From Naegleria gruberi (Eukaryota): a stretch of 64,000 nucleotides of DNA. The stretch lies in the NCBI GenBank assembly GCA_000004985.1, contig GG738920.1; one strand, 5' to 3'. Made by a program: the position numbers and the translations under genes. The notes under the pieces were generated by a model. That model did not search any database. It worked only from the letters and a program-made list of their open reading frames with translations, and had not been told where the DNA came from. Below are positions 1 to 58,531 of the stretch, piece by piece. Positions within the stretch are counted from its first letter, which is position 1, and every line of letters begins with the position of its first letter.

Positions 1-3000
1 AAATTCAGTAGCACTTCTTCCAAATATTTCAGGAGTGTACATTTCTTCTGCCTTCACACCTGGGATAACAAATGAACCGATTGAGGTAGCTCTAGCAATG
101 TAGGTAAATTCGTGAGTGCCTTCCCATAACAATGAGCTAAATGCCTCAACTCTCTCATCTCTAATGTTGTGGTGTTCATACCAAATTGGATTAAACCACC
201 AACACCACCAACCGTTTGATCTACTATTGGTTCCACTTCCACTTACAGTAGCAATATCTGGAGTTCCTTTCAATTCTGGATTGATTGGTTCAAGACCAGC
301 AGGTAAAAAGTCAACTAATGCAACGTGATATCTACGACTGGTATTGGTCATGGTCAACTTGATACGAACCAATTCTCCAGCCTTAAATCTCCAAGTGTTT
401 CTTTCTCTATCAAATGTAACATGAGAAGAATCAGTCACGTGTTCATAAGTTCTTTGAACTTCAAATCCATAATCCAATGCATCAACAAGCAAGTTCTTTG
501 GAGCATATTCCATTCCAATTCTGTAATATAATCTTCCAGGTCCATGCTTGGAAATAGCAAGTGTCTTTTGACCATTCTCTAATAAACTCATTGGAATGCT
601 CAATTGGTTTTCATCCTTGGATCTTCCCTTGAAAACTTGCTCTCCACAATAATCTTCACCTAGCCACATGTTGGCAACAAAATCTGGTGTCACACCTTCG
701 AATACGTTAAAGTATGTATTAAGGGAAAGAAGGATGAAAACATTTTCTTGAGTATTTTCCCATCTACCTTTCTTTCTATGAGCCAGTAAGCCCTTGACAA
801 TCTTTGGAATAATATAATTTTGAGGAGTAATATTAATAAGAGCTTCTAAGCAAATACCATCAGTTCTACGATTGCTGTGCAACATGACATGTTTAGTGGC
901 CATTGCATCACCATAGCTTGTGATAAAGTTTGCTGTTTGAGCAGTTTCATTCACATGCTTATTCAAATGTTCAATGATTTGATTAACAGAAGTAGTGGCT
1001 CTCTTATTATTTGATAAATATATGGCAGTAGCCAACCAAGCTAAATGTTCAAAATTACCTGAAAGTTTGTAAGTTTGATAAAGTTTTTCAGCTAAATTCT
1101 TTGCCTCAGAATCATCTAACAATGCCAAAGCATAGTAGGCATATGCCTTGAGTGATTTGATAGTCTCCTCAGAGTAGTTCTCACAATAACTTTCAATACT
1201 TCTCAATACTGGAACCAATTTTGAGAGAGTGGATTCATTCACTGAATATCCTGCAAGCCTGGCTCTAGCAAGGGAATGACCGACGTGGCATGTAACGTAT
1301 GGACTGATACGATGATCCACTCCATTAAATGACCAGTAGCTGAATCCACCATTTGGATATTGTCTTGTTGATAATTGTCTGAGTCCTTGATTAATATTTT
1401 CATCAAGGTTTTCCTTTGTTGGAAGCTCTTGTAATTTGAAAGCAAGAAGAATATCTTTAAGAGCTAAAATTGATAATAATCTACTAGAAATTTGTTCAGA
1501 GCATGCGAAAGGATAATTGTACAAATAAAGGAAACTGTCAGTGAGTGAAGACAATGCAGTAGAGCTGGTTGAAATCTTGAGACCTCCAAATTGTGTGAAA
1601 ACATCTTGAGGAGCCTTTACAGGTTGGAACACTGAGCTATCACCATCCATTTCACCATAAGTTGCAAATGCTTCAGTTGTGGCTGGAGTAAATACTCTGA
1701 TTTCTTTTTCAACAGCATCAGAGAAGTTTACACCAGAAGTGGCGATAGAGACACCAACTTGGAATCTGGCCACACCCACCCTATCAGTAGTCATGGGGAA
1801 TCTCAATTCAGCCCTTCCTAAAGCTGGTATTCTAATCTTGAGTCCTTTCTTTGAGGTATCCAACAAGTTCAAATTGGTAAAGTTAATAGCAGCATGTACC
1901 TCCAAACTTAATTGGGTTTGATTTTGTAAAACACATGTAAATTCTGCTCTATCGCCAAAGTTCAAGAAACGAGGTAGGGATGGTCTGATTGACAATGGAA
2001 GTTGAGCAATCATAGATGATTCATGAATTCCAAAATTCCAATCTCCCTTAACAGCCACAGCTGTGATTCTGTACTTGGTAAGATTATCAGGAAGTTTAAA
2101 TTTAACAGAGGCCACTCCTTCAGAGTTTGTCTTGTTGGTTGGGCTAAAGATGGCAAGAGGATTGAAATTAGATCTCACTACAATCTTTGGTTGTTTGGAT
2201 AGTTTAGCTCCTCCTCCACCAAATCCACCTACACAACCATCACCACAACATGCACATTGGCAACAAAGGTCGTCACAACAACAGCATTCATTCATACAAT
2301 CTTCAAAACAACAATTAGCGCAAGAACTGCATGCTCTAGCAAAGCGACAACAGTTAGTAGGACTTCGCATTAACGGTAGTTCCTCTTGGAAAACAATACC
2401 ATCATAGCTCTTAACAAAAACATTATTTCTGATGGAATAAGTTTGATAATAGCTGCTGTATTCTCTAACAAATGTATCTAGAGGATTAGCAATGGTGTGG
2501 CCAGTTAATGACAATACAGCTTCATCCACAGCAATGATACAAACTTCACATCCTTCTAAAGGTTTACCAGTTATTGGATCCTTAACAATGACATCAATGC
2601 TAGTTTCGCTTCCAGGTGTCAAATATTCCCTTTCAGGCTTGGATTCAACAGATAAGGTTCTGGAAATCTTTGAAACCTTAATCATACATTCACCACTTGC
2701 AAAAGCAGGTTGTTTTGGTAAATCCTCAAGAACATTACCTATAGCATCAACCCTTGATTCGCAACCAGTAACTTCAGCACTGACGAAAATATTTGGAATA
2801 TGGTCAGAAGTAATGTCAAGTTCAAATTCAATATAGCCAGGCTCACCATCAATTTGAATAGGATGTTGGCTATGTATTCCATGAAGTCTTGTGAATAAAA
2901 CACCTTCACACCTTGTTTCAAAAGGAGATTGAATTAAAATCTTAGCCTTTTCTCCAATTTGATATTCAGTCTTGTCTGGAAGTAGAGTGAGTTGTTTCTT

Positions 3001-5913
3001 TGTAATATTCTTTCCAAGTTTTTGCTCCCTCACAGAAGCACCTGTAATGTACAAGCTTGTTGAAGAGTTATTAGTTTGGCCTGTTTCAGAATCAACAATA
3101 TCAACAGAGAAATAATAGATACCACCATTTCCAAACTTTAAAGGAACGTCAACAGCTTCCTTTCCTGAAGTGAAAACTTCATCAACAATTTCAATAGTTT
3201 CCGAAACAAATTTGTATCCCTTCTTTACCTGTACATTGGTGGTTACTTTCAATTTCATTGGAATACCAGAAACCAATTTTCCATCAATGTCAGAAACAAT
3301 TAGAGAAGCAGTTATTGGAATGTTTGGTTTGGCGAATTGTTTGCTCAACTTGATTCCACAATAATATTTACAAGGGTGAACAAGGAAGGAAGTAGATGAA
3401 GAAATGGTTTGTCTATTGATATCTTGTACAGTTGCCTCCACTGAGATGGTAACTGGTGTCTTTACCAAACGATCACTTTCATCAAAGGCAATAGCAACTT
3501 GATGCTCACCATTAACATCTGTAGTACCTTCAAAGCTTGTAACATCAAGAGCTGATCCACTTGGGAATAAATAATTTGCTACAGAGGAACCTCCAAAATT
3601 GTATGAGGATTGGTTTGGAGGAACATAACTACTACTGGTTTGTTTGATAGAATAAGAGCATTTAGCTCCTGAGATTCCTCCTCCACTATAGTAAGTAGCA
3701 TTAGTGGTACAAAGAGCAGAACCACCAACAATGTAGTTTCCAGCAGGTACTGAAGATTTAGATTTGAACTCTGGTGTTCTAAATTCTTGAACTTGGAATT
3801 GATGGAAGGCAGAGAACCCATCTAATGAGATGGAGTGACTTCCCAAGTTGGCATTATCAGGAACTTTGAATTGAATATCAAAAGTACCATCTTCACTCAG
3901 AGTTACATTACCAGAATGATACTTTTGACCTCTCGCATCCAAGACTGTGAAAGTAGAACTAGTTTTTGGTATTTCAATCTTTTCAACATTGTCAATCAAA
4001 TTGAAGTTTCTTACATAACCCTTGATGGAAACTGTTTCATTAGGCTTGTAAAGTCCTCTATCGTTGAACATGCAAGCAACAGTTTGTGGTTGATATGGAT
4101 TGTAATAGTGATAAATATCTGGAATGAAGCATGTATCTTGACCTTGAGTGGCAATAGCCTTCACATATGCTCCATATTGTTGTTCATGACCAATATTACG
4201 TATACAACCAATACCAGTTGATGAGTTAGGTGTATTTGGGGAATGATTGTTGAATTTGAAGGTTACATTATCCTTAATAATACTTCCATCCAACAATGAG
4301 TTAACCCAATAGTATACACTTGATGAACTTGTGTCAAAAACACAATCAACAGAAATTTTGGTTGCTTGAATCCAAGATGTGAAACCAGGTCTTTGATTCC
4401 ACTCACCCTTCCAGCTACTTTTTTCTGGCTCAACAATAACAAGCAATTGACCAATATTTTCAGATGGATACTGAAGATAGGAATGAAGATTGATTTCAGT
4501 CTCCACTGGTTCGTCAATTTCTCCCTTTGTTGAAATGACACTATCACAAACCAATTTACCAGGATATTGAATAGTTGAATAGGTGTTATGATGAAGAATA
4601 GATGAAGAATACATATTTGGTTGGACTTGATAAACACTCAAATGTACAGAATCCAAATTTACAGTAACAATTGGGTAGGTTGGAGTTGGATTCAAAGTTG
4701 GATCTAAAACAATCACACCAGTCTTGAATGCTTGGAGTGATTGACGTGCACTTTTAACAGTAAATTCTACAGTGGTGTCTGGAAGGATTTGACCCCAAAC
4801 ATCAACCAAATTCTTCAAGAAAACCTTATAAGTAGTTCTTCCTTTGATTTTACCAGAAACACTGATAGTGCATCCGTATGGATTTAATTCCATTCTTTCT
4901 ACTGGTGGTGAAACAGTTACCATACTTTCTGTTAATTTTTCCAAATCAATATTTGTTGTAAAATTCAATCCAAAAGCCTGCATTGGTAGCTCACCACCGT
5001 GTTTTCTTTCAAACTTGAAAGCTGGATAATTCTTGACTTGATTGCTTACATCCTTTTGTGTTGGTAATGGACCTTCTGACCCAGTAACTCCACTCTTGAC
5101 AACTACTTGAGAGGAGAGACCAAGTTTGTGACTAGTGGTAAACCACAAATGTCTTCCATCTGGAGCATGTTTGAGTTTTTGTTCGTAAAACGAATGAATG
5201 CTCCTATCTCTCTTCTCCAATTCATAATCTTTCAAAACTTTAACAATGTGCTCCTCAACGAGAGGATTCGAAGACTTTCCATCATGAATCAAATTGGCAC
5301 TTTGATTATCGATAGTAATAAATTTGATCACTTCACTTGGATTAATTTCTTGATCAAACTCACAATAGTAAATTGGTACTTCGTTGAGAGGATGAGCTTG
5401 TTGGTTTGGGAAAAATTGCTTTACATATAATCTTGGAGTTTCAAAACTAAATGTCAAATCTTCCTTCAAAGTTCCTCCAATTTCTGATTTGGTACCCTTC
5501 TTGACAGTAACTGTATACTTGGTAGACATGTCAAATCTGTAATTAGCTTCATAAATTAAAGTTTTTGTTCCCAACCACTTGAATTTTCCTCCCTTCTTTG
5601 GGAGTGGTGAAATTTCTACTGGAATATTATGACTTTCTACTTCTGCAACACCACTCACAGGAACCATTGGTTGAGAGAAGGTAATAGTCACAGATGGAAC
5701 TGATCTATCCAAAACACCTTCTGGTGAATAACGAAGCACACTCAAATCAGATCCTAACAACTTTGCCTCCTCTTCAATCAATTCCTTTGGTTTTTCCAAA
5801 CTTATTTCAGGTGGAAATGGAACACTATTAATCTCGGCAGTAATTGGTGCCTTCAATGATTTTTCTCTAATGAGAACAATAATTAGATAGAATTTTCCGA
5901 TTATTATTATCAT
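1..5913 (-). CDS. Alpha-2-macroglobulin-family thioester-containing protein. The N-terminal 1971 codons lie in the window and the gene continues past the 5' edge. It has a signal-peptide-like N-terminus (MIIIIGKFYLIIVLI...).
   Basis: Hand translation of the minus strand from the ATG at 5913..5911 is open to position 1. Both ends are in frame (5913 = 3 x 1971). It shows the A2M/bait-region signature (IVVRSNFNPLAIF...LPDNLTKYRITAVAV...PRFLNFGDRAEF). It has a thioester-like motif, PFACSEQ (Cys codon about 1501-1503), and a TED-like helical region. The C-terminus has a receptor-binding-like motif (LVDFLPAGLEPINPEL). The ORF track misses it because it runs off the window edge. Confidence 0.7.
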   Translation of the reverse strand, partial: MIIIIGKFYLIIVLIREKSLKAPITAEINSVPFPPEISLEKPKELIEEEAKLLGSDLSVLRYSPEGVLDRSVPSVTITFSQPMVPVSGVAEVESHNIPVEISPLPKKGGKFKWLGTKTLIYEANYRFDMSTKYTVTVKKGTKSEIGGTLKEDLTFSFETPRLYVKQFFPNQQAHPLNEVPIYYCEFDQEINPSEVIKFITIDNQSANLIHDGKSSNPLVEEHIVKVLKDYELEKRDRSIHSFYEQKLKHAPDGRHLWFTTSHKLGLSSQVVVKSGVTGSEGPLPTQKDVSNQVKNYPAFKFERKHGGELPMQAFGLNFTTNIDLEKLTESMVTVSPPVERMELNPYGCTISVSGKIKGRTTYKVFLKNLVDVWGQILPDTTVEFTVKSARQSLQAFKTGVIVLDPTLNPTPTYPIVTVNLDSVHLSVYQVQPNMYSSSILHHNTYSTIQYPGKLVCDSVISTKGEIDEPVETEINLHSYLQYPSENIGQLLVIVEPEKSSWKGEWNQRPGFTSWIQATKISVDCVFDTSSSSVYYWVNSLLDGSIIKDNVTFKFNNHSPNTPNSSTGIGCIRNIGHEQQYGAYVKAIATQGQDTCFIPDIYHYYNPYQPQTVACMFNDRGLYKPNETVSIKGYVRNFNLIDNVEKIEIPKTSSTFTVLDARGQKYHSGNVTLSEDGTFDIQFKVPDNANLGSHSISLDGFSAFHQFQVQEFRTPEFKSKSSVPAGNYIVGGSALCTTNATYYSGGGISGAKCSYSIKQTSSSYVPPNQSSYNFGGSSVANYLFPSGSALDVTSFEGTTDVNGEHQVAIAFDESDRLVKTPVTISVEATVQDINRQTISSSTSFLVHPCKYYCGIKLSKQFAKPNIPITASLIVSDIDGKLVSGIPMKLKVTTNVQVKKGYKFVSETIEIVDEVFTSGKEAVDVPLKFGNGGIYYFSVDIVDSETGQTNNSSTSLYITGASVREQKLGKNITKKQLTLLPDKTEYQIGEKAKILIQSPFETRCEGVLFTRLHGIHSQHPIQIDGEPGYIEFELDITSDHIPNIFVSAEVTGCESRVDAIGNVLEDLPKQPAFASGECMIKVSKISRTLSVESKPEREYLTPGSETSIDVIVKDPITGKPLEGCEVCIIAVDEAVLSLTGHTIANPLDTFVREYSSYYQTYSIRNNVFVKSYDGIVFQEELPLMRSPTNCCRFARACSSCANCCFEDCMNECCCCDDLCCQCACCGDGCVGGFGGGGAKLSKQPKIVVRSNFNPLAIFSPTNKTNSEGVASVKFKLPDNLTKYRITAVAVKGDWNFGIHESSMIAQLPLSIRPSLPRFLNFGDRAEFTCVLQNQTQLSLEVHAAINFTNLNLLDTSKKGLKIRIPALGRAELRFPMTTDRVGVARFQVGVSIATSGVNFSDAVEKEIRVFTPATTEAFATYGEMDGDSSVFQPVKAPQDVFTQFGGLKISTSSTALSSLTDSFLYLYNYPFACSEQISSRLLSILALKDILLAFKLQELPTKENLDENINQGLRQLSTRQYPNGGFSYWSFNGVDHRISPYVTCHVGHSLARARLAGYSVNESTLSKLVPVLRSIESYCENYSEETIKSLKAYAYYALALLDDSEAKNLAEKLYQTYKLSGNFEHLAWLATAIYLSNNKRATTSVNQIIEHLNKHVNETAQTANFITSYGDAMATKHVMLHSNRRTDGICLEALINITPQNYIIPKIVKGLLAHRKKGRWENTQENVFILLSLNTYFNVFEGVTPDFVANMWLGEDYCGEQVFKGRSKDENQLSIPMSLLENGQKTLAISKHGPGRLYYRIGMEYAPKNLLVDALDYGFEVQRTYEHVTDSSHVTFDRERNTWRFKAGELVRIKLTMTNTSRRYHVALVDFLPAGLEPINPELKGTPDIATVSGSGTNSRSNGWWCWWFNPIWYEHHNIRDERVEAFSSLLWEGTHEFTYIARATSIGSFVIPGVKAEEMYTPEIFGRSATEF

Positions 5914-5924
5914 GATGTTAATCG

Positions 5925-6218
5925 TCACACAAAATTTAAAAACACAAACCTCATGAAGAAATCCTTTTGATCACCACCTTCTGATTTTACATTCGGAAGT
6001 CTACTCAGTAATCTCTGAGTTTCCTCCTCTGACAAACCCTCAATGGTTGCCGATAAATTGCTACTTGATTCATTGCTACAACTCTTTCCTTCCATCATGA
6101 TCAATGATCGGGTTGTATCCTCTGCAGTAGGCTCTCTAACACTCAACTTTAATGCACCACCCAATGATGCACTTTCAAGTTCATTGTCAAGCAATTGCTC
6201 GAGATCATATCTAACCAT
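5925..6218 (-). CDS. Small acidic hypothetical ORF (97 aa) just upstream of the A2M gene. It may be spurious or part of a 5' leader.
   Basis: An ATG-initiated ORF in the track with low-complexity acidic/Ser-rich composition. I see no recognisable motif. Confidence 0.15.
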   Translation of the reverse strand: MVRYDLEQLLDNELESASLGGALKLSVREPTAEDTTRSLIMMEGKSCSNESSSNLSATIEGLSEEETQRLLSRLPNVKSEGGDQKDFFMRFVFLNFV

Positions 6219-8733: not shown

Positions 8734-11127
8734 ATGAATGAGACACTTGATAGTAGCAGCAACAATCTCCTCTTTAATCGTGAATATACTTCGAGGTCAA
8801 ATGTTGGGAGGCCAACATTTAGTTTAAGGGACTCTATGAATAGGGAATGTCTAGGATCATCCAATGTTGTGCCAACAACTCAAAAACAAACATCTTCTTC
8901 CGAGAGAGTTTATGGAGCAACATTTACTCCCTTCCCAACAAGAGAAAATATTCCTCCACGTTCCGATGATGCTGTCCTTAGAAAGAGTTATACATTTGAT
9001 GACAAGATGAGTGGCTTCCGAGAAAAAATCGACAATAGTCACTATAGCACATCTTTGGGGTGGAAGAGAAGAGCCGAGAAGGATGCAGAATGTTGCAAGA
9101 ACTGTCATTTATGTACTCAAACTCTTACAACAGATAAATGGGCCTTAACCAAACAAGAACGACAACTAAGGCCAGACTCATCAACAAGAGAACCAATGGA
9201 AGGTTATTATCCAAGTAATGATGGAAAGCAATATAGACCATATTCTCCAGACACAAAGTCAATGATGCAGAAATTAGTTGGCTACAAGGAGAATCCACAA
9301 GATCCTTCATTACCAATGTATAAATCAGCTCATTCACATCAAACTCCATCTGTGGATTATTATATGAATCAACCAAAGATTGAAACAAACTCTAGGCAAT
9401 CACAACCTAACACATACCCTAAGAATCCAAGTAAGATGCAGCCTTATAATACAAATACGATCTATCTAAGTAACAACCCCATCTCAGTCAAAAGTGTGAC
9501 ACTAAATACCAGATACGATCCAGCCTCAAGGTATAATCAAAATCCAGATGAGCCAAATAATTTCTTTCAAAGAGTTAGAATGGGTAGAATGTATTCTGAT
9601 TCTACTCCTTGGGAATACTATTTACATTATAATGAAGACGATGATGAAAAGAAGGACATGTATGATATGATTAGACAAAGATGTGCAGAATATGCCAAAA
9701 ATCAAACCAAAAAGGAAGATAGAAAAAGTAGAATATGTATGGAAACTTCAGAATTTAAAAATATTGTGGAAAAGCTCACAAGAAAGGAAACTAGCTCAGT
9801 GGAGACACAGACAGCAATCGATGAAAATAATAAGGAAAATGAAAACGATTATTCTAGAAATGCAATACAATCGAATAATACATCTGATTCTACAAGAACT
9901 AAAAAGTCAGACAAACAATCAGTCAATCAACAATCAAACAATCAATCAAATGGTAATGAAGAAGCAAATATTTATCTTCAAAATTCATCTGAGCAAAAGA
10001 AAACAAAATCTAAGCCAACTAAAAAGAAAGTATCCAATAATTCTACGACTCTCTCAACAACCTCAACAACTTCATCCAAATCCTCTAATAGTAGTGGCAG
10101 TTCAACATCCAATAGAGTACTCTCCATAACAAATGGTCCTCCTAGCACCAACAATAGAGTTATTGACGGTCTACCTGTTAACAGTCCTGCCAAAAAGCAA
10201 GATACACCAAAAGGTGTACCTGGTTTTACGCCACCTAAAAAGTCAGAAGTTTTTAATAAGATTGTCACAAATATGACCTCCAATAATAAGAAAAAGGTGA
10301 ACTCAAAGAAGAAAAAGAAGTCTCTAAATATTGAACCAAGGAAGAGTGTCTCTCAAAATACTACCTCAACTTCATCCTTCATAATATCAGACAAGACCAA
10401 ATCAACAACAACCTCTCCCTCCATAATCAACAAACCTGACAAGAAATTTAAAAAGACAATGAAAAGAATGGAAGATACAAAGAAAAAGGCAGAGTGGCTG
10501 GATAAGTACATTGCCCTGCTTTCTAGTCCAGAAAAATCAAGTGTTAAGAAGCGATTGGAAAGCTCCAGCAGACACACCTCTCCAAAGAAATCTGAAAGCT
10601 CACAAATCACCTTGCAAACCTCTTCTGATTGTGAAGATAATTCTACTCCATACTCCATTGACTTTGATGATGTTTACACTGGGTTGCCATCAACAGTGTC
10701 AACAGCGATAGCAACCTCAAAGTCTGTGCAAAAATGCTTTGATTCTGTTCTGAATTACTTTGAAAAGTCTAAATACAAATCAGACTCGTCCACGGAAGAG
10801 GACAATTTGGATGAAGAATTGGATGATAATGTAAGCCTTTCATCAATGACATCTGAATTGGAAATATCTGTAAAATATAACATTGGCAGCTACTCGAGTG
10901 ATGAAGAGGATGAAGAACAACTTTCAAGTGACGATGAGGAATGTAGTTTATTGAATGAGTTTACTCCAAATACTTCTTACCTTGTTGATAATATGAACGA
11001 AACTTCAGCAAGCATTTCAATGGATACCTCGCTGAACACTGTTTCGATCGGTTCAGAACAAGAGTTTGAGTGTAGCTCTTTGGATGATATTTCACGAGAT
11101 TTTAACATTTCAAATATGTCAATATAA
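8734..11127 (+). CDS. Ser/Thr/Asn/Lys-rich low-complexity protein (797 aa), hypothetical.
   Basis: A long ORF starting at a true ATG at 8734. It has S/T-rich tracts (TTSSKSSNSSGSSTSN), K-rich tracts and an acidic C-terminus. Confidence 0.45.
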   Translation: MNETLDSSSNNLLFNREYTSRSNVGRPTFSLRDSMNRECLGSSNVVPTTQKQTSSSERVYGATFTPFPTRENIPPRSDDAVLRKSYTFDDKMSGFREKIDNSHYSTSLGWKRRAEKDAECCKNCHLCTQTLTTDKWALTKQERQLRPDSSTREPMEGYYPSNDGKQYRPYSPDTKSMMQKLVGYKENPQDPSLPMYKSAHSHQTPSVDYYMNQPKIETNSRQSQPNTYPKNPSKMQPYNTNTIYLSNNPISVKSVTLNTRYDPASRYNQNPDEPNNFFQRVRMGRMYSDSTPWEYYLHYNEDDDEKKDMYDMIRQRCAEYAKNQTKKEDRKSRICMETSEFKNIVEKLTRKETSSVETQTAIDENNKENENDYSRNAIQSNNTSDSTRTKKSDKQSVNQQSNNQSNGNEEANIYLQNSSEQKKTKSKPTKKKVSNNSTTLSTTSTTSSKSSNSSGSSTSNRVLSITNGPPSTNNRVIDGLPVNSPAKKQDTPKGVPGFTPPKKSEVFNKIVTNMTSNNKKKVNSKKKKKSLNIEPRKSVSQNTTSTSSFIISDKTKSTTTSPSIINKPDKKFKKTMKRMEDTKKKAEWLDKYIALLSSPEKSSVKKRLESSSRHTSPKKSESSQITLQTSSDCEDNSTPYSIDFDDVYTGLPSTVSTAIATSKSVQKCFDSVLNYFEKSKYKSDSSTEEDNLDEELDDNVSLSSMTSELEISVKYNIGSYSSDEEDEEQLSSDDEECSLLNEFTPNTSYLVDNMNETSASISMDTSLNTVSIGSEQEFECSSLDDISRDFNISNMSI

Positions 11128-14155: not shown

Positions 14156-17028
14156 TTAAAGCTCATTGTTTTCCTGTGGGTTGACTTCGTAAACTTCAGA
14201 TTGATTGGATATATTATTTGGTTGGGAAATAATGGGATATTGTACTGGGTTGTCATTATTTGTTACAGTTGAGGAGAGGGGAGGAAATGATGATTCACTC
14301 TCTGTCATTTCAACTGAAGGAGTAATTGGATCTTGCATATTTGTTGATGAATTATCAGTTCGAGTATTCAAGTAATAGCTTGGTATGGAAAAGTAGTCCT
14401 TTGGACAACGTTGGTTGAATTCTTCCTCAGCAACAATCTTTCTCACATTTTCCTTCAAATCGAATACATCAATCACACCATTCAATTGTTCACAAACTAC
14501 AATTGCTTCCAATCCCCATTTAAGGTATTGTCTAATTCTGTGGATGGTATGGTTTGGAACTTCTGAAAGTCCTAGAACAGATAAATCATCTACAGAAGAA
14601 CCAAATAAAGATTCTTGAGAGCCATACAATCCAAAAACTCCAGTCATTAGGGCAGTTGATTGTAAAGTTTCCAATTCTTCGAGCTGAATTTCTACAGCTT
14701 TAACAATGCACGGAAGGACCACTGGACCACTGAAATAGAAAGCATCATTTCTTGTTGCTTCAATGACAGAATAAGATGCTAATATTGAGGTTGGTGTGTT
14801 AATGTTTGGAAGTGTAGAATAATTTTCACTCGTTTTTGAGGAACACATATCATCTCCAACAATGGATAACTTTGATACAATAATACTGATAGTGTCAGCA
14901 ATCATCTGGGAGGTCAAGAGAGAAATATTAGCAGAGAGTGGAGGGATAAAATTTTTGAGTACTTGATTTCCATAATTGAGGAACTCTTTGGAAAGTTTCA
15001 TTCTTTCTAAACATTCATCGAAGGAGATTCCTTTCTGAGTGTTAGAGCAAGATATACTTGCACTTGGATGGGCACGAACCGATTTGCAAGGTATGGTCAG
15101 GTAGTTCTCAACCCAGAATGAAGTTTCATTTTCAATTTCTCTTATTCTTTGTTCATCTTCTTCATGAATGTGAAGGTAAGAGTATTCATAAAGAAGCTCA
15201 TCTGCTTGTGGGGATGGAGGTAATAATCTCTCGTTATTCTTCTTTTGTTTCAAAGTTTTGATTAAAAATTCGGTAGTTGTTGCCGATTCTTTTAAATTTT
15301 GAAGTTTTGAGAGAGTATTAAATTGAGAAACTATTGTAGATGAGTGTAATTCATTCAAGCAGACGAGAAATTCTTGAACTTGGGATGATGTTAACTTGTT
15401 CTTAATCTTTTTCGAGAAGAGTATAACTTGAACATGAGAGAGTAATAGATGAAGTAAATGATCTTCAATATCCAAGTCTTTGATAGTATTCCTATATTCT
15501 TTCCATCCATGTTGTGAGTGAATACTACTAGTGGTTGTATCATGTTTGGCTACTCTTGATTCCAAATACGATGATACCTTAGTTATGTACTTGGATGCTT
15601 CCTCTGGATGTCTATTAGCAACTAGAAGTGAAATGTAGGAAAAACATATTAATACTCGTATTAACGTTTCGTGATCGTGGGATTTAACATGCTTTTTAGC
15701 TTTTAAATGTAAATAGAAAGGTTCCAGATATGACTTTGCCTTATTGAGGAGAAATTCCGAGACTTGAGGGAGGCCTACTCTATCAAATGCTAAAGACTGG
15801 ATACATAGAAAGAGTGAATAGTCAACATGATCGATATCTGAGAGTTTTTGCTCTTTGGATCTTATGGCAATGTGATGAAAATTTGAAGAGTCGTGTCCTA
15901 TAAGATGAGCAAGTTCTGGGGTTGGAGTTGATAAAGAAAGAGGTGTCAAATCTATAGAGAAATCAAGGGATGATGGCAAATTTGTTGAAATGTGAAGAGA
16001 GCTAGGTTTTTTGTGATGATAGTAATGTTGATCGTGATGATTTTTGTGCTGTTCAGTAATATTATTATGATTAGGTTCATGAGTTTCCTCACAAAGACGG
16101 TACAGAATGGAGATGATGTATGTTTTCAAAATATTTTCACTTGTTGGTTCGTCATCCACTGTTCCTAATTCGTTTGTCATAAAGTGGAAAGATACTAATG
16201 AATCATACAAGCATAAATCTCTAACGAGCTCCAATTTCCGTTTTGCAATTGATGAAGGTTGAATTTGTGGTAGAACTTGCTCCACAAACATACTCAAAAT
16301 ATTCTCATAGGTTTCATATTTTGGATCATCAAATGGTGACTTGTCTATTTGTTGTAATAATTCAATCCTTTTGTGTGCAGGTTGATGTTCATCCCGATGT
16401 GGATGTAAAGTTGGAACACCAGAAACAATCACTGGCTCAGCTCCATCTTCCTCCTCACTTTTAGATATTTCCTCATCATGTACATGTTTTACACCATGTT
16501 TTTCCTTCTTGTTCTCCTTTTTGTGACTTTTTTCAGTTTTTTCCACAATGCTATCTCCTTCGTTTGTTGCAGTTGAAGGAGCGTTAGAGAGTGGCACCAA
16601 AGTCTTGGTTGGTGATTTTGCTTTTCTATTACGTTTAGCCTGTGGATAAACACAAACTTTGTCTTTCCTACGACAATTAGAACAAATTGGCAATGCTTTA
16701 TCACACTAGTAGCAGATGTGGTAAATAAAGAAATTAATCCATCCAATAATTAATTTTACAAAGATGATCAAAAAAACAATGATAAAAAGCATAGTAAACA
16801 AACCTTTCTATGTCCCTTTCTACATTCTCTACAGGCAATTGGAGAATAGGTTTGAAGTACTTCCACAAGAGGTTGATCGGAGGAGGTTGAATTTTGAAGA
16901 TCAACATTGTCTGTTGTTGCCCCATGATCAAATAATTCTTCTTCATCACTTTCATCTTCTAAATCTTCATCACTATTCACAATGACTTTGTTTTTCGTCG
17001 ATGATGATGTATTTCCTGTTGCAAACAT
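14156..17028 (-). CDS. Zn(II)2Cys6 binuclear-cluster transcription factor. Two exons: 17028..16804 and 16705..14156, with a 98-nt GTTTGT...TAG intron.
   Basis: Splicing exon 1 (...SPIACRECRKGHRK) to exon 2 (CDKALPICSNCRRKDKVCVYP...) gives a perfect CxxCx6Cx6CxxCx6C spacing. Both junctions are in phase 0. The long C-terminal region is typical of this family. Confidence 0.6.
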
Positions 17029-17292: not shown

Positions 17293-17363
17293 TCGGGTGT
17301 GGTATAGTGGTAGCATTCCAGACTGTCACTCTGGCGACCCGGGTTCAATTCCCGGCACTCGAG
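17293..17363 (+). tRNA. tRNA-Asp (anticodon GTC).
   Basis: The sequence is TCGGGTGTGGTATAGTGGTAGCATTCCAGACTGTCACTCTGGCGACCCGGGTTCAATTCCCGGCACTCGAG. It has a 7-bp acceptor stem, anticodon loop CTGTCAC, T-loop GGTTCAATTCC, and a downstream TTTT run (17370-17373) as a Pol III terminator. Confidence 0.85.
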
Positions 17364-19451: not shown

Positions 19452-21201
19452 TTATCTGAGGGATAATTTCAATTTAAAACCTTCAACTGGAGCAAGGTTT
19501 GGCAAATGTTTGTTGAATTGCATTTCTTGATTTGGATGAGCTAGGTCAATTCTAAACTTTTGGAGAATGGAAATGATGAATGCTTTTTGTTCGAGTTTGG
19601 AAAAGTCGATTCCTGAACAAATTCTTGGTCCATTTCCGAAAGGAACAAAAGAATTTGGAACAATTGACTGCATGAATCTTTCTGGTTTGAATTCTTCTGC
19701 ATCTTGACCCCAGGCATCTCTATTTCTATGAAGTGCATAAATATTGAGAATGAGAAGGAAACCTTTTGGAATCTTGTATCCATCAATGACTTGTGGAGTG
19801 GCCAAACGACGAGGTGGAAGTTGTGGAATTGGTGGATAAATTCTCAAATTTTCCTTAATGACACAATCCAAATATTTCATACTTTGAATCTTTTCATAGT
19901 TTGATAAATCTTCATTACTTCCAAATGTTTCATTAATTTCATTAAGTAATTTTTCTTGAACGTGTGGATGTTTGGCTAGTGAATAAAAGAGGAAAGCTGA
20001 AATAGTTCAATAAGATGATGAACAATAGAAAATTCTATAACAACTTACCTAAAGCCACTGCCGTAGTTTCGTGTCCCGCAAGGAAAAACACAGCGGTGTT
20101 GTTCTTGATATCTTCATTGCTGAGTCCATTCCCTTCTTCATCCACAGAGTCTACCATCATTTTCAAAAGGGTATCTTCCATGGCAGGATCTTTAGATTTT
20201 CTACAATCTTCAATCATTTCACCAATGAACTTGTTAAATTCCTCAATGGACATGTCCATCTTTCTATTTTGTTCTAATGGCAACTTGGTAAAGGCCTTTC
20301 CCAAGAAGAGTCTAGCTGCATTTCCCATATTATTCATCACATAGTGATAGGCTGCAAGGGCTTTCAAATTCTTTTCCGAATCCTTATTTCCACGATTTGG
20401 TATTATTTGATTGAGATAGTCAAAATCAACTCCCAACATGCATAAACCCAAAACATCAAGAGCCATTCTAGTAGTCAAATCAGATGGTGAAATTTCAAAT
20501 TGACTCTTTCCACCAGATAATTCTTTCAATAAATCAACTGCCTTTTGAGAATTTCTCACAAAACAATCAGTAAATCTCTCAATCTTAAAGAAGGCAGGAT
20601 TAATAATTGTTCTATGCTTTCTCCAGACATCTCCATTTGCAAACACAACATTCACACCAAAAAACTTTTGCATATCCTCAGAGAATATCAATGAATCATC
20701 CTTCTCCACATCCTTCCACTTTAAAAAGATTGTTTTTGCAGCAGATGGCGTACTCACCATCATCACTGGAATATTCCCAATAAATCCAAAATGTGGTCTG
20801 AAATTATCAGATCTAATAGCCCTCTCATACGATTGCACCGTTCCATGATTTTGCTTGAACAAATTCACCCACAAACAATAAAAAGTATTAAAATGTTGCA
20901 ATTGATTCACTGGAATTGGCACTGGAGGTTTATAACTCTTCTTTGAATATTGTGGATGCTGTTGATCATGAGGAAGAACATCATCGGAATCATCAGAGGC
21001 TTGTTGCTTGACAATTTTAATCTTTTTCAAGATTGATTTTTCATTGAGGGTGACGAGAAGGTAGGGTATCCCGATTGAAGCTACTGCTATTGAGGAGTAG
21101 ACAGCCCACGGAGGTAAATTTGGTAAATTGTCGAGTTGTAATTGTTCTAACATTTTTTTTTGAATTTTTTTTGCATTTTTAGCTTTTGATGAAATTTTCA
21201 T
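19452..21201 (-). CDS. Cytochrome P450. Two exons: 21201..20049 and 19996..19452, with a 52-nt GTAAGT...CAG intron (20048..19997).
   Basis: The I-helix motif AGHETTA lies at the end of exon 1. After splicing, it has the EXXR/PERF motif (FKPERF) and the heme-binding motif FGNGPRICSG. The splice is in phase 1 and continues AVALAFLFYSLAKHP... Confidence 0.8.
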
Positions 21202-23994: not shown

Positions 23995-25721
23995 TTATTG
24001 GAAGAGAGAAGAGTGGATCTTTTCATTATTGAGATACCAAACTTGATCTGGAATGTTGGAAGCCATTTCTGCCTTCTTGAGTTCCATATATTTTCTTCCT
24101 TGTTCGGTAGATAATAATTCAATCATGCCCTTCATGTATGATAATTCAATTTGAGCATCTGTTGATTTGATATAATTTTGAACTTCAATGTTAGCTTTGG
24201 TTGTTTCATAAGTGACTTGAGAATCAATCTTGGCTTCTTCAACCTTTTCAACTTGCAAGTTTTCATTTTCAATACCGATGAGTTCTTCACGTAATTTTTG
24301 AATTTCAGCTTCTGCCTTAAGTTGTTCCTTTTGAGCTTCTCTGGAGGCTTCAGTTTCCATCTTGTTACAGACAATTCGCATATTAGATTTGATAGATTGG
24401 TTCAAGAGATCATTGATTTGGTTATTAACAGGTGAGATTGATTTAACGTCGATTTCAGAGACTAATAATTTGATTTCATCAAAATAAATACCAAGAACGG
24501 ACTTTTCTTCGTTTCCAACATTGACTTTGGATTCATTGAAAAGGTGCTTTCGAATTAATGATACAGTTCCGCTGTGGAATTCTTCGAATGTGAAAAGAGC
24601 AGCAAGTTCTCTAACTCTTGACATGAGGGTAGCACAAATATATCCAATAAAGTCAAGCATTCTGAACATGACATGTGAATCTGATTCATCAACCAAAAAT
24701 TCCCACTTGTAAGTTAACAAAATGCTGAGTTCAGCATTGTCCTTTGTACTGACACGGAAAGAATCAGAAACGAAATCTGGACCTCTCATAATTTTGGCGG
24801 CCTTAATTTGTTTGATTTGTTTTGGCTTACCAGCAGACAACCAGAGACACTTAACGTGTTCCTCAGGTGAGAGAATGTATGAGGTTGGTCCATTGATAAT
24901 TCTTTCATTTCTTTCAGCATCCAAAACACAAACTACTTGTTTCTTTTCAAGACGAATAACAGTAGCCATATAATCCGAGCTAGTAGGTAATCCAAGAGCA
25001 GTCTTTTCCATATCAGTGTATTGCTTATAGTACAATTCTTCAGTTGCTTTCAAAATATAACATGCAGGTCCCTTAACTAACTTCTTTTCGGAAGTTTCAG
25101 TATCTTGAACATAAATACCTTCATTTTCATTGATCATGATGGCATTAACAGTTTTCATAACTTCAGTATCCTTATCTGGAATAAATCTGGCTGGTCCTTT
25201 AATTTGATAAACATCACCGGCCTAATTTAACAATAAAATAAATTGCTCAAATGATTACTAAGAATACAAACCTTCAAATCAACTTCCTTTCCATCAATTT
25301 CTATCTTCTTATCAACCAAACATCTCAATCTCAAAGCTTGGTTTGGTTTCAAAATATGAACATCAGTAATAGCTTCAATGACTTCATTTCTATGCAATGC
25401 CAAAGCCTTTGGTCCTTCAATAACACGACGTTCACCCATCAAGTTTCTTTCTTCCTCATAATCATATGGATTTTTAATAATAACATATTGTCCTTCCTAT
25501 TATCAGTGTAATTATTTAACAACAGCGATGATAATACAATGATGATGATCAACATGTTGTATTGTTGTGTGGTCACTTACCTTGATGATTGACAAATTTT
25601 GTGTATTAATGATGGCTTCATTGGCTCTCAAAGCAATACGTTTTGGACCAATTTCAATCTTGACAACACCCGAATCATTATCAAGAATGTGTACATAAGT
25701 ATTTGGATTTAGAACGTTCAT
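23995..25721 (-). CDS. MVP: Major vault protein homologue, unusually short at about 530 aa. Three exons: 25721..25581, 25496..25272 and 25221..23995.
   Basis: Exon 1 (MNVLNPNTYVHILDNDSGVVKIEIGPK) matches the MVP N-terminus (YIHVLDQNSNVSRVEVGPK). Exon 2 carries NQALRLR and exon 3 carries ENEGIYVQD. The shoulder motif LSAGKPKQ...RGPDFVSD...LTYKWEF corresponds to LSAGRPKR...GPDFFTD...LAYNWHF. The introns are GTAAGT (84 nt) and GTTTGT (50 nt). All three junctions are in phase 0. Confidence 0.65.
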
Positions 25722-43019: not shown

Positions 43020-46000
43020 TTATTTCTTTTCAAAAGGTGTACAGAATGCAGTGTTTGTTGCAAAATGATGGAAGACTTCATGATTTTGTTTTTCAACTTG
43101 TGACATGACTCTCTTTCTAATAATCTTATCTTCATTGTGATGAATGAGATAGAGTAAGCAAACTAGCAGTACAAACACCACAATACTAATAATCAAATGT
43201 GGTAAGAATGCGGCTGTTGTATAAACTCTCAAACCAAAGAATACAATCAAAAACCAAGCTGACATGGAAAGTGCAATAATGAATACTTTCACAACGAGGA
43301 TAACTTTCTTCTGAATGGAAATGAAATCAATTCCCTTTGGTTTGTTATCAATTATGTCCAAATTATAACCAGCAGGAGCAGTGTAAATTTCTTGAAGTAA
43401 ATACCTGTCAATCCAATGTTTCATCATCATGTAGAATAATCCACATGGTAAAATAATTGGAATAAAAACTGAATAACACATGCACAAAGTGAAAACAGCC
43501 AAAATCTTTGCATAATTAGTATCAACAGAAAAATAGAATTGATCAGTGGCAGCTCTCAATTTCTCTAGAGGAGATTTTGCCTTTCTGTAAGGAGAAAGCT
43601 TTGTTTTCCAAATATACCAGAAAGCATCTTCAGTTCTAATCAAGTCATCCAAATTACCAATCAATGCATACTGAATAGCAGTCGATACCATCAATGCACC
43701 AGATGCTGGAAGGAAGATATTTGCAAGCATTTCTTGGAAATTCTCTTCAGTCTTGATATAATTGACAATACCATCCATAGAAGACAACCACAAGCTTGGC
43801 ATGACTAAAATGGTAAGAACCATGTAGAAATACTTTCTGAGAAGATAAATTCTCTTGTACTCTTGATTACTATCATATTTACCAAGCATGGTTACCTTAC
43901 TGATAACAAAACCAATTAATCTAGAAATCCAATAGAGGAAGAATGATGGCAAGAATTGGAAGAAAATACTTCCAACAATACCTGTGGCTCTTTGAATTTT
44001 TTGAATATCCATATCTACAACACCAACATTGAAAAGTGATTGAATAGCAGAGAGTATTGATGCAGGACTTGAGGCAACTATGAAGAATAGAACCAAGAAA
44101 AGATGGATCATTATATTGGTTGCAATTCCTTCATATCTTGAGCCTGTCAAACCAGAACTTCTGCAAACTGTGTACCAGTTAATATCAGTTGGTTCTTGAT
44201 CTAATGGGTGGATGGTAATCACATTATTTTGTAATCTAATTTCATTATTCAAATATCTTCCCAAAACATCTTTAACATGAGAGGTATTCTTGAAAATTAA
44301 ATAAGCAACTCCACTGCTGCTAATTCCTTCATTGTTTACGAAAATTGAAGATATTGGATCATTATTATTGGTTTCTTCAGCTTTAGTGTCCTCAATTTGA
44401 ATATCTTCCATAAAACTTGAATCATCAAAGCTGTCAATACTATTAACTTTTGGAATTTCTCTATTTTTGGTATGAAGTAACTGGTTGTATGAGGCATCCC
44501 ATTTACTGACCTCCTTACGGATCAGCCTTTTTCTCGTTTCTAAATGTTGAATAGCTTCCTCAGTATTCAACATGTTAATTTTCTTTCCGTGAGTATGTAC
44601 ACCAAAGCAGTGGGAAAGAACATTTTTGGAATCCACGACACCTTCATCAAAGATGACATGCTCCTTAAGGGAAAGTAATTCTTCTCCTCTTTCCAACTTC
44701 AAATGGATAAAGTGATCCAAATCTTCCTCAATATGTTTTAAAATTGCTGACATGGTTAATCTATTGATAAAGTCATAAATCAAAACTGATCTCAAAATTT
44801 TGCTGTCCTCATGATCTACTTTCAAATTGTCGTTAAAGTAAATCTCAACAAACGATTCAAAATCCTTCAAATTTGTCATTTCCCTTGGCAATCCTTTTAC
44901 AACGACAACATATGGAGAAATAATTTCTTTAGGATCAATAGATTTCTCCTTATTATGAATAGCAATAGAAGTGCTATCTGTTTCTTGGAATATTTCAAAT
45001 AGGCCATCCTTTTGTGATGAAATAATATTACTATCCTCTTGGTGTACTATTTCTTCTCTTGATTGATTCTCTACAACAACCTCATGAAAAACAAAGTGGA
45101 AAAAGAAGAAGAGTCCAACACAAATTGAAATTATACCAACAACTACGTGAGCATACAATGCAACAGGTGAGTCAATAACCATTTCAACAGTCGTTCTCAA
45201 TAATATATTGTCCTCTTGCGTTAAATTCTTGATTGGCTTAATACCTTTTTGCAAAACATCACTATTCGAATATAAAGAGATGTCATCAGAAGAAGGTAAA
45301 TAATTGAAACTACTACTACTATTATTCATAGAATACTCAAATATTGGAGGATTACCCGAAAGATGGATTGGTAACAATACCACACAAGCCAATATACTAC
45401 AAACCAACATGATATAAAGTATAATTTGTTGGAAATACAAGTAAATTACAATGTCCTTTCCATAGAGAGCCATCATTTTCTTTCTCTCCTGTTTTGCCTT
45501 CGAAGGAACAAAGAAGGACACAATTCCCTCCCTAAAGTGAGCAAGCATTGTTGGGAAGAACAAGATGGTAGAATTGAAAGCCTCCAAAATTACAATCTTC
45601 AATCTTCCTAACAAGTGCTTCTTCATCTCTGTTGGTTCGGAAGGAAGTTTTGGAATTTGATTAAAAGGATATTGATTAGAAACTTCTTGATAGGCACTCG
45701 TAATTTGATTAGTAATTGTACTGGCCGATGTATAATATTCATTATTACTATTTTCTACGTGTTGTTGTTGTTGTTGAGAATGATGGGATGAATCCTCTTC
45801 TTCATTAGCTTGCTGATGAGCCTTTTCCTCTTCCAAATCCCTCATGTATTCATCAAATAATTTCTTCTTTTTCCTCGGATTGAACAAAGACAATTGTCTA
45901 CAACATAAAAAGAATAATAACATATACAACAAGGCAATCAGAATATTGGCAACTAGAGTTGTCAACACTCCTCCTGCGCCTGCTATATTAAAATTAACTT

Positions 46001-46073
46001 GAATGGTACTATTGGGTGGTATAATGATAGGATCACCCTCTCCACCAAAGAGTGAAGAAGTGGTTAATGGCAT
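43020..46073 (-). CDS. OSCA/TMEM63/CSC1-like cation channel of the DUF221/RSN1_7TM family (1017 aa). These channels are described as calcium-permeable and gated by stress.
   Basis: It has N-terminal TM helices, a cytosolic RRM-like domain starting PYVVVVKGLPREM and ending GVAYLIFKNTSHVKD...PTDINWYTV (matching the AFVTF...APEPxDIiWeNL pattern), then a 7-TM C-terminal domain. Confidence 0.5.
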   Translation of the reverse strand: MPLTTSSLFGGEGDPIIIPPNSTIQVNFNIAGAGGVLTTLVANILIALLYMLLFFLCCRQLSLFNPRKKKKLFDEYMRDLEEEKAHQQANEEEDSSHHSQQQQQHVENSNNEYYTSASTITNQITSAYQEVSNQYPFNQIPKLPSEPTEMKKHLLGRLKIVILEAFNSTILFFPTMLAHFREGIVSFFVPSKAKQERKKMMALYGKDIVIYLYFQQIILYIMLVCSILACVVLLPIHLSGNPPIFEYSMNNSSSSFNYLPSSDDISLYSNSDVLQKGIKPIKNLTQEDNILLRTTVEMVIDSPVALYAHVVVGIISICVGLFFFFHFVFHEVVVENQSREEIVHQEDSNIISSQKDGLFEIFQETDSTSIAIHNKEKSIDPKEIISPYVVVVKGLPREMTNLKDFESFVEIYFNDNLKVDHEDSKILRSVLIYDFINRLTMSAILKHIEEDLDHFIHLKLERGEELLSLKEHVIFDEGVVDSKNVLSHCFGVHTHGKKINMLNTEEAIQHLETRKRLIRKEVSKWDASYNQLLHTKNREIPKVNSIDSFDDSSFMEDIQIEDTKAEETNNNDPISSIFVNNEGISSSGVAYLIFKNTSHVKDVLGRYLNNEIRLQNNVITIHPLDQEPTDINWYTVCRSSGLTGSRYEGIATNIMIHLFLVLFFIVASSPASILSAIQSLFNVGVVDMDIQKIQRATGIVGSIFFQFLPSFFLYWISRLIGFVISKVTMLGKYDSNQEYKRIYLLRKYFYMVLTILVMPSLWLSSMDGIVNYIKTEENFQEMLANIFLPASGALMVSTAIQYALIGNLDDLIRTEDAFWYIWKTKLSPYRKAKSPLEKLRAATDQFYFSVDTNYAKILAVFTLCMCYSVFIPIILPCGLFYMMMKHWIDRYLLQEIYTAPAGYNLDIIDNKPKGIDFISIQKKVILVVKVFIIALSMSAWFLIVFFGLRVYTTAAFLPHLIISIVVFVLLVCLLYLIHHNEDKIIRKRVMSQVEKQNHEVFHHFATNTAFCTPFEKK

Positions 46074-58460: not shown

Positions 58461-58531
58461 TGCATTAGCCGGGAGTCGAACCCGGGTCACCAGCTTGGAA
58501 GGCTGGTATGATACCGTTACACTACTAATGC
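58461..58531 (-). tRNA. tRNA-Gly (anticodon TCC).
   Basis: The reverse complement reads GCATTAGTAGTGTAACGGTATCATACCAGCCTTCCAAGCTGGTGACCCGGGTTCGACTCCCGGCTAATGCA. It has a 7-bp acceptor stem, anticodon loop CTTCCAA, T-loop GGTTCGACTCC and a downstream T run. Confidence 0.85.

Follow-up and report, generated by a model that had tools for sequence, protein, structure and literature searches.

A poly-cysteine block in the predicted bait region of a bacterial-type alpha-2-macroglobulin from Naegleria gruberi

The window analyzed here is a 64,000-nucleotide (nt) stretch of the Naegleria gruberi contig GG738920.1. From position 5913 to position 1 its minus strand is a single open reading frame (ORF) of 1971 codons. 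The encoded protein is identical (100%) to NAEGRDRAFT_59800 (accession number XP_002670008.1) of N. gruberi, which has a chain length of about 2050 amino acids (aa). By its sequence the protein appears to be a complete and functional thioester alpha-2-macroglobulin (A2M) of bacterial type. It carries a block of 40 residues with 17 cysteines, and alignments together with a structure model place this block in the variable core of the bait, i.e. the trigger loop. The aa positions given below for this protein are those of the ORF, and all features of the gene are on the minus strand.

The gene has two exons. The database protein (P0001) aligns by tblastn in two parts, residues 1–50 at positions 6098–5949 and residues 48–2005 at positions 5874–1. 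With splice reconstruction this gives an exon 1 at 5950..6218 that encodes a hydrophilic N-terminus, a spliceosomal intron of 83 nt at 5867..5949 (GT..AG, sequence GTTTGT...CATTAG), and an exon 2 at 1..5866 with the remaining A2M coding sequence, whose last 5 codons and stop lie past the window edge. Read in frame, the intron (5949–5867) translates as MIIIIGKFYLIIVLI, which forms the first residues of the 1971-codon ORF. The original prediction, made from the window alone, had taken this hydrophobic ORF start for a signal peptide; the segment is intron sequence, the real N-terminus is hydrophilic, and a signal peptide at the ORF start is ruled out. The same prediction had the gene truncated with its C-terminus unseen. 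The window edge does cut the gene, but the unseen part is only five residues (AEVFE) and the stop codon.

The database model starts at the ATG at position 6098 (MMEGKS...). With a start at the in-frame ATG at 6218 the protein gains 40 residues (MVRYDLEQ...LKLSVREPT), and the N-terminal motif ‘L.L.VREPT’ that results is common to homologues. Because the added residues match this motif, the annotated N-terminus is probably 40 residues too short and the true start is probably the ATG at 6218.

Pfam searches show MG2, A2M_BRD and A2M domains in the order of the family and all above the curated cut-offs. A Big_5 bacterial Ig-like domain is at aa 73–159 (window positions 5437..5697, E = 6e-8). It is followed by the MG2 macroglobulin (MG) domain at aa 615–697 (3823..4071, E = 3e-15), A2M_BRD at aa 975–1136, which ends in the conserved VDEAVLSL (2506..2991, E = 5e-18), and the A2M domain PF00207 at aa 1254–1340 (1894..2154, E = 2e-15). 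The C-terminal MG domain, bMG10, is at aa 1816–1962 (28..468, E = 2e-32). The whole protein gave no match to A2M_recep or TED_complement in Pfam and no match in NCBIfam.

The thioester site, identified by HMMER alignment and motif, is YNYPFACSEQ at aa 1465–1474 (1492..1521), with CSEQ at aa 1471–1474. It aligns to YPYGCLEQ of ECAM, the Escherichia coli A2M (HMMER), and has the conserved Tyr at position −4 of CSEQ, as does SaA2M of Salmonella (Y1175). The C, E and Q of the thioester are nearly invariant in an alignment of 52 sequences. Two motifs within bMG10, IRDERVEAF (139–165) and AEEMYTPE (28–51), are invariant or at least 90% conserved in the same alignment. Their counterparts in SaA2M and ECAM, RD(D/E)R and E-x-M-Y, first hold the thioester domain in place and later the cleaved bait (PMC4498604). 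The thioester-type CSEQ motif named in the original prediction is therefore present, with Tyr at −4, and it is accompanied by RDER and EEMY in the C-terminal domain.

A second thioester-like motif, YCGEQ, is found at 637–651 (aa 1755–1759), about 285 residues past CSEQ. All copies from Naegleria and Willaertia share it, and the consensus of the 52 mostly bacterial sequences at this position is YAGE. In the structure model YCGEQ is on a predicted beta-strand outside the helical thioester domain, and its likeness to a thioester motif is probably coincidental.

An AlphaFold2 model covers aa 773–1971 with a mean predicted local distance difference test (pLDDT) score of 76.7. Foldseek against the PDB yields ECAM (5a42, E = 1e-51) and SaA2M (4u48, E = 1.7e-51) as the top hits, followed by the human proteins A2ML1, CD109, C5 and A2M. 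The best sequence homologues are, in order, an N. gruberi paralogue (74%), proteins of N. fowleri, N. lovaniensis and Willaertia, and then bacterial proteins of the COG2373 ‘YfaS-like’ type, which are about 2000 aa long, come from Acidobacteria, Chloroflexi and Myxococcota, and have 35%–41% identity. The A2M-family assignment made earlier is thus borne out by the Pfam domains MG2, A2M_BRD, A2M and bMG10 and by the Foldseek hits. A kinship to metazoan thioester-containing proteins (TEPs) and CD109 is not supported; the protein belongs to the bacterial COG2373-type lineage, gained, as it appears, through gene transfer.

The poly-Cys block, CCRFARACSSCANCCFEDCMNECCCCDDLCCQCACCGDGC, is at aa 1188–1227 (2233..2352). 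It had been located at 2225–2355, which is essentially right, and had been credited with 18 Cys in 40 residues; the Cys-rich block is real, but the count is 17. Cys makes up 42% of the block, with 7 overlapping CC pairs, and the longest run is CCCC. At least 17 Cys in a given span of 40 residues has a binomial probability of about 1e-22. The 1931 ORF residues outside the block contain 23 Cys (1.2%), and the block is the only strongly Cys-rich stretch among the long ORFs of the 64 kb. The DNA of the block was checked for microsatellites and tandem repeats and none was found. Its Cys codons are 13 TGT and 4 TGC, close to the 15 and 8 elsewhere in the gene. A simple-sequence artefact as the origin of the block is ruled out by the repeat check and the codon usage. 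Pfam searches with three Cys blocks at thresholds up to E = 10, metallothionein included, gave no match, nor did a search of PDB sequences with the Cys block.

Three observations place the block in the bait. It is located between A2M_BRD, which ends at aa 1136, and A2M, which starts at aa 1254. It falls in a linker of 77 residues (aa 1168–1244, 2182..2412) that is predicted to be disordered, with pLDDT values of 27–49 and no secondary structure. It ends 2 residues short of a stretch that aligns to the ECAM bait: residues 1230 onward (GFGGGGAKLSKQPKIVV...) align in HMMER to RFGGDGDELKRGGKPPVN of ECAM (residues 946–963), and the aligned ECAM stretch as a whole takes in residues 946–965, in the C-terminal part of the ECAM bait. 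This stretch belongs to the conserved C-terminal part of the bait, GFGGGGAKLSKQPKIVVRSNFNP (2158..2226), as aligned by HMMER to 5a42, 4ziq and 4rtd. The aligned ECAM residues include R956, G958 and N963, which are contact residues of the cleaved bait, and R923–L942 of ECAM are disordered once elastase has cut (PMC4498604). The Cys block is therefore assigned, from alignment and model, to the variable core of the bait loop, and the placement in the bait that had been proposed for it agrees with the Pfam order, with a linker of pLDDT below 50 and with the ECAM bait alignment that begins 2 residues on.

Baits were cut out of the family members by anchoring on the flanking conserved blocks. Their length varies from 59 to 194 aa. 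A Cys-free bait is present in 325/363 family members, and a further 80 metagenome loci all have 0 Cys. Baits with at least 10 Cys are found only in eukaryotes (among approximately 440 family members). In addition to N. gruberi 59800 (17 Cys) they include N. fowleri FDP41_002492 (12 Cys), FDP41_013569 (10) and FDP41_011249 (13); N. lovaniensis C9374_013396 (12) and C9374_003975 (12); a EukProt Trinity transcript with two isoforms (P0126, 15 Cys); an ENA metagenome cluster (P0143, 18–19 Cys); and P0212 (14 Cys), an intron-fragmented gene with zf-MYND as a neighbour on a eukaryotic contig of 434 kb. Since P0126 comes from a Trinity transcriptome, its Cys block is present in mRNA. Searches with a profile of 24 eukaryotic sequences and with P0212 as query, and a scan of metagenome loci, yielded bacterial homologues almost exclusively and added no eukaryotic member to the set. 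These homologues, with 0 bait Cys, serve as extra negative controls.

The Cys content of baits is 9.6% in eukaryotes (7.6-fold enriched) and 0.1% in bacteria. The Cys-rich blocks across the family have 24%–54% Cys, and CC pairs and longer runs exceed CxC and CxxC in most of them. Outside the bait, Cys number about 5 in bacterial copies and 20–34 in eukaryotic ones. Met is enriched about 4.4-fold in the baits of bacteria and eukaryotes alike. In the bacterial baits (about 330 homologues, P0013–P0481) Pro before Met is favoured 1.8-fold, the tripeptide A-P-M is found in 27%, and there are MxM and MM clusters as well. This pattern resembles Ala-Ala-Pro-Met serine-protease substrates, or alternatively a Met-rich metal or oxidant motif.

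A variant of the thioester motif, CCEQ (with a second Cys), is present in P0003, P0004, P0005, P0121, P0126, P0143 and P0212, all of them eukaryotic, and in no bacterial member of the set. Six of these seven also have a Cys-rich bait. The co-occurrence reflects either shared ancestry or functional coupling.

Eukaryotic members also differ from bacterial ones at the N-terminus. Among eukaryotic sequences that start with Met and have at least 1850 aa, 0/32 show a hydrophobic N-terminus, vs. 326/409 bacterial homologues, 90 of which (out of the 326) have a lipobox-like motif. The eukaryotic set includes complete ORFs from the Percolomonas and Sappinia transcriptomes and a Dracoamoeba sequence from a transcriptome-derived collection (MMETSP/EukProt). 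In N. gruberi the ATG at 6218 is separated from the end of the upstream gene by 220 nt, hardly enough space for an overlooked exon. Given the loss of the export signal, the protein most likely works in the cytosol. In this reducing compartment free, metal-bound or lipidated thiols would be likelier than disulfides.

A neighbor-joining tree was calculated from 995 columns with the bait excluded (100 bootstraps, support counted as unrooted bipartitions). The eukaryotic sequences are monophyletic with 98% support and those of Naegleria with 100%, and the latter form three clades with 100% each. The nearest relatives outside the eukaryotic clade are bacterial, and the gene, as judged from these relationships, is of bacterial origin and entered eukaryotes through gene transfer. 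Each of the three Naegleria clades has a member with a Cys bait. P0126, P0143 and P0212 are outside a clade with 100% support that contains Naegleria, Willaertia, Percolomonas and others, and Willaertia, Percolomonas and the other non-Naegleria members of that clade are without Cys-rich baits. Because Cys baits are scattered inside and outside the Naegleria-containing clade, the Cys-rich bait has either been gained more than once or is an old trait that was often lost.

The bait evolves faster than the rest of the protein, but its Cys are retained. Orthologues of N. fowleri and N. lovaniensis have 83%–86% identity overall and 33%–51% in the bait core. In the clade B pair of these species (83% overall, 33% in the bait core), 8 C-C columns align (a somewhat inflated count, as noted below) and non-Cys positions are 21% identical. 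Between N. gruberi and N. fowleri the identity is 68% overall and 36% in the bait core, with 10 aligned C-C columns, counted in the same way. Three independent sources give the same N. fowleri block, and in near-identical metagenomic variants of P0143 the Cys core is constant while the flanks differ. Since aligned Cys are kept while other bait positions turn over, the bait appears to be hypervariable with the Cys themselves under constraint.

One paralogue shows how far a bait can change. Outside the bait P0002 (XP_002670374.1) of N. gruberi has 77% identity. Its bait, rich in Met, Gln and Ser, contains 0 Cys and seems to have been exchanged after the duplication. P0002 is annotated as a ‘ras GTPase domain-containing protein’, and the only Pfam domains on record for it are those of the A2M family. 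The name was probably taken over from CPRas2 of Dictyostelium, which is described below.

As a whole, these features are best explained, if tentatively, by a Cys block that is the variable bait core of a captured bacterial-type trap, one that has lost its export signal and is cytosolic. Such a trap would still fire by cleavage of the loop: the conserved trigger parts are all present, and the flanks of the block, LPLMRSPTN and GGFGGGGAKLSKQPK, resemble ordinary bait sequence. The 17 thiols would constitute a cluster open to modification in the reducing cytosol. Its runs of adjacent Cys (CC, CCC, CCCC) would be S-acylated, and the loop, and with it the trap, would be pinned to the cytosolic face of a membrane. 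The S-acyl tether would take the place of the signal or lipoprotein anchor that the bacterial ancestors had at the N-terminus, and Cys-free paralogues (e.g. N. gruberi P0002) would be soluble versions.

The chemical part of this proposal, that the cluster is an S-acylation membrane tether inside a bait that can still be cleaved, is a possibility put forward by analogy and with some doubt. It is favoured because adjacent-Cys runs dominate the blocks, basic or hydrophobic residues are often interleaved, and the ancestral N-terminal anchor has been lost. Internal poly-Cys loops of cytosolic proteins are typical S-acylation sites. The linker of SNAP-25, the CCPCC loop of PI4KIIalpha and cysteine-string protein have comparable runs of adjacent Cys in a flexible internal segment and no signal peptide or transmembrane helix. 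They differ in that the bait blocks share no sequence homology with them and have neither a J domain nor a SNARE context, in that some of the blocks are strongly acidic, and in that acylation of the baits is putative.

Several points weigh against this proposal. The blocks of the Naegleria proteins P0006 and P0007 are very acidic (12–13 D/E), a poor fit to membrane apposition, and heavy acylation of a bait could hinder access of a protease. Since Met is enriched in bacterial and eukaryotic baits, sulfur-rich baits could reflect a soft-metal, oxidant or protease-subsite logic and not lipidation. The counts of aligned C-C columns are somewhat inflated, as BLOSUM62 favours C-C pairs in Cys-rich segments, and signal peptides were scored as absent on the basis of gene models and a hydropathy threshold rather than with SignalP.

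The main rival to the S-acyl tether, itself rather unlikely, is a bait gated by metal or redox state, as the original prediction had suggested. The thiols would bind Zn, Cu or Cd or form reversible disulfides, this state would shield or expose the bait, and the trap would sense metal or oxidative stress. A block that is 42% Cys with CC, CxC and CxxC would suit such a gate, and the other sulfur ligand, Met, is enriched in baits throughout the family, with Cys only where the export signal has been lost. Cu(I) is handled through Met in the periplasm and through Cys in the cytosol, and apo-metallothionein is labile to proteases where the metal-loaded form is resistant; both facts would fit a gate of this kind. 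The likeness to metallothioneins extends to a short segment with 24%–54% Cys in the form of CC, CxC and CxxC. However, the Pfam search down to E = 10 and the search of PDB sequences returned no such family, aromatic residues (e.g. Phe) are present and His is rare, and runs of adjacent Cys dominate over the CxC and CxxC that are typical of most metallothioneins. The bait block is also a loop in a protein of about 2050 residues, and its Cys positions shift between orthologues, which disfavours a fixed cluster geometry. As for Met, the Pro-preceded residues and the APM of bacterial baits suit protease subsites as well.

In a less probable explanation the bait is simply hypervariable and has no special thiol chemistry, with Cys tolerated after the loss of export as a compositional by-product. 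The bait core is indeed the fastest-evolving part of the protein (33%–51% vs. 83%–86% identity), bait length and sequence vary widely in the family, and Cys outside the bait have also increased, from about 5 in bacterial to 20–34 in eukaryotic copies. Relaxation alone, however, would give about 1%–2% Cys and not the 24%–54% found. Cys columns are kept while their neighbours turn over, the Cys core is invariant among near-identical environmental variants, and Cys-rich baits have arisen or been kept in four or more separate lineages.

Another explanation starts from the bait as a site of insertion. P0012 (L001 10001–16096), encoded on a metagenome contig of eukaryotic origin next to genes for RdRP, RGS/GPS and Tudor-SN, has a complete ubiquitin at aa 1234–1305 that ends in LRLRGG (Pfam E = 8e-25). 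The ubiquitin lies between A2M_BRD and A2M, the position of the Naegleria Cys block, and P0012 may be a trap for deubiquitinase-type proteases. In CPRas2 of Dictyostelium a circularly permuted Ras (cpRAS) GTPase at positions 2844–3013 is located between two COG2373 homology blocks, the second of which starts 775 residues from the C-terminus; the COG2373 protein was attributed to horizontal gene transfer (Elias and Novotny, 2008; PMC2430557). The cpRAS insertion, placed from these published coordinates and not from an alignment, is consistent with the bait position. Two bacterial members with baits of 168–190 aa, P0265 and P0266, have an extra beta-rich segment of about 90 residues with the look of a carboxypeptidase-regulatory-like beta-sandwich (GRV.N..TGEPV.GV.V.V...). 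Because the ubiquitin, the cpRAS and this bacterial segment are all found there, the bait has the marks of an insertion hot spot that tolerates whole domains, in bacteria too. The presence of cytosolic signalling modules as inserts in eukaryotic copies that have no signal sequence suggests the logic of an integrated decoy.

Applied to the Cys block, this would mean that the bait mimics a host structure cut by pathogen proteases, such as the lipidated poly-Cys or polybasic tails of small GTPases, and that effector proteases are captured covalently; we consider this improbable. The ubiquitin of P0012, at the position of the Cys block, and the placement of cpRAS in CPRas2 from the published coordinates would be in keeping with it, as would the exchange of whole baits between recent paralogues (P0001 with 17 Cys vs. 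P0002 with 0, at 77% identity elsewhere). The explanation is wholly inferential, however, and we know of no protease class that prefers Cys-rich sites. In its widest form it would describe a cytosolic bait-and-trap defence of amoeboid eukaryotes. The bait would have been rebuilt repeatedly as a decoy of host structures, with a lipidated poly-Cys cluster in Naegleria and at least three other lineages, ubiquitin in P0012 and, in Dictyostelium, a Ras-like GTPase. Once an effector protease of an intracellular pathogen cut the decoy, the thioester would be released and would capture that effector covalently inside the host cell. This wider scheme, too, is a distinctly unlikely one.

That the Cys block is a retained intron, a mis-assembly or a sequencing artefact is hardly credible. 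In its favour, an intron of this gene had been read through in the original prediction, and a TACTAAC...AG string (2332–2358), which looks like a branch point followed by an acceptor, extends over codons 1–7 of the block. Against it, the reading frame has no interruption and its translation agrees fully with the database protein, the DNA has no tandem repeat, no intron fits at the string because the upstream residues IVFQEE align to homologues, and N. fowleri (in three independent sources), N. lovaniensis and a transcriptome (two isoforms) all have homologous Cys blocks. An origin by intron retention or mis-assembly is ruled out by the alignment of IVFQEE and by the blocks in other species and in transcripts.

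The genes that neighbour NAEGRDRAFT_59800 in the window are eukaryotic (F-box/LRR, vault protein, P450 and an OSCA-like channel). A fragment of a major vault protein with shoulder and repeat domains is encoded at 23995–25158 (minus strand), a cytochrome P450 fragment at 20035–21201 (minus strand), and an RSN1/OSCA-type channel gene at 43020–46073 (minus strand). A tRNA-Asp(GTC) is located at 17293–17363 (plus strand) and a tRNA-Gly(TCC) at 58461–58531 (minus strand). Large ORFs at 8734–11127, 14156–16693 and 46362–50786 have no Pfam match.

The A2M family and its mechanism are already known, and transfer of such a gene into Dictyostelium was proposed in 2008. To our knowledge the alpha-2-macroglobulins, TEPs and complement proteins characterised so far all work outside the cytoplasm and have ordinary protease-sensitive baits. 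In the searchable literature we found no account of these Naegleria genes, of cytosolic thioester proteins in amoebae, of a systematic loss of export in eukaryotes, or of a ubiquitin bait; nor was a description of a Cys-cluster bait found in it, in agreement with the original prediction. The family as described here departs from what is known in three ways. In eukaryotes the export signal is consistently gone although the thioester-trap architecture is intact; a bait composed in large part of Cys has evolved, apparently under selection, more than once (or is old and was often lost); and relatives have a whole ubiquitin or Ras domain at the bait site. If the proteins are active, thioester-based trapping reaches the eukaryotic cytosol, where the trap could be coupled to lipidation, to metal or redox state, or to recognition of pathogen effectors. 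The human pathogen N. fowleri has three paralogues of the family, all with Cys-rich baits. The protein is large yet tractable, and methylamine and protease-shift assays exist for the bacterial homologues.

Among known systems the metazoan A2M, TEP, CD109 and C3–C5 proteins share the superfamily fold and the logic of a bait followed by a thioester. Paralogue families of metazoan A2Ms and TEPs differ chiefly in hypervariable baits. The identity of the metazoan proteins to the Naegleria protein is 10%–14% in fold alignments. They are secreted and disulfide-bonded and have GCGEQ and a receptor-binding or C345C domain at the C-terminus; the Naegleria protein is without these and has bMG10 instead. 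CPRas2 of Dictyostelium, which was compared by its published description, is likewise a eukaryotic homologue of COG2373 type with a foreign element at the presumed bait. It differs in that the insert is a folded, circularly permuted Ras GTPase and in having an unrelated N-terminal extension of 2100 residues.

The closest likeness is to ECAM (YfhM), SaA2M and the COG2373 proteins of bacteria. These share with the Naegleria protein an Ig-like N-terminus, MG domains, BRD, bait, further MG domains, a CxEQ thioester domain and bMG10, as well as the Tyr at −4, the RD(D/E)R and E-x-M-Y motifs and a disordered bait, and they give the best match in sequence and fold. Of the bacterial A2Ms, however, 80% have a hydrophobic N-terminus, many with a lipobox, and their baits contain 0.1% Cys. 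The Naegleria protein, unlike them, has no export signal, is encoded by a gene with a spliceosomal intron, and contains 23 Cys outside the bait and 17 within it.

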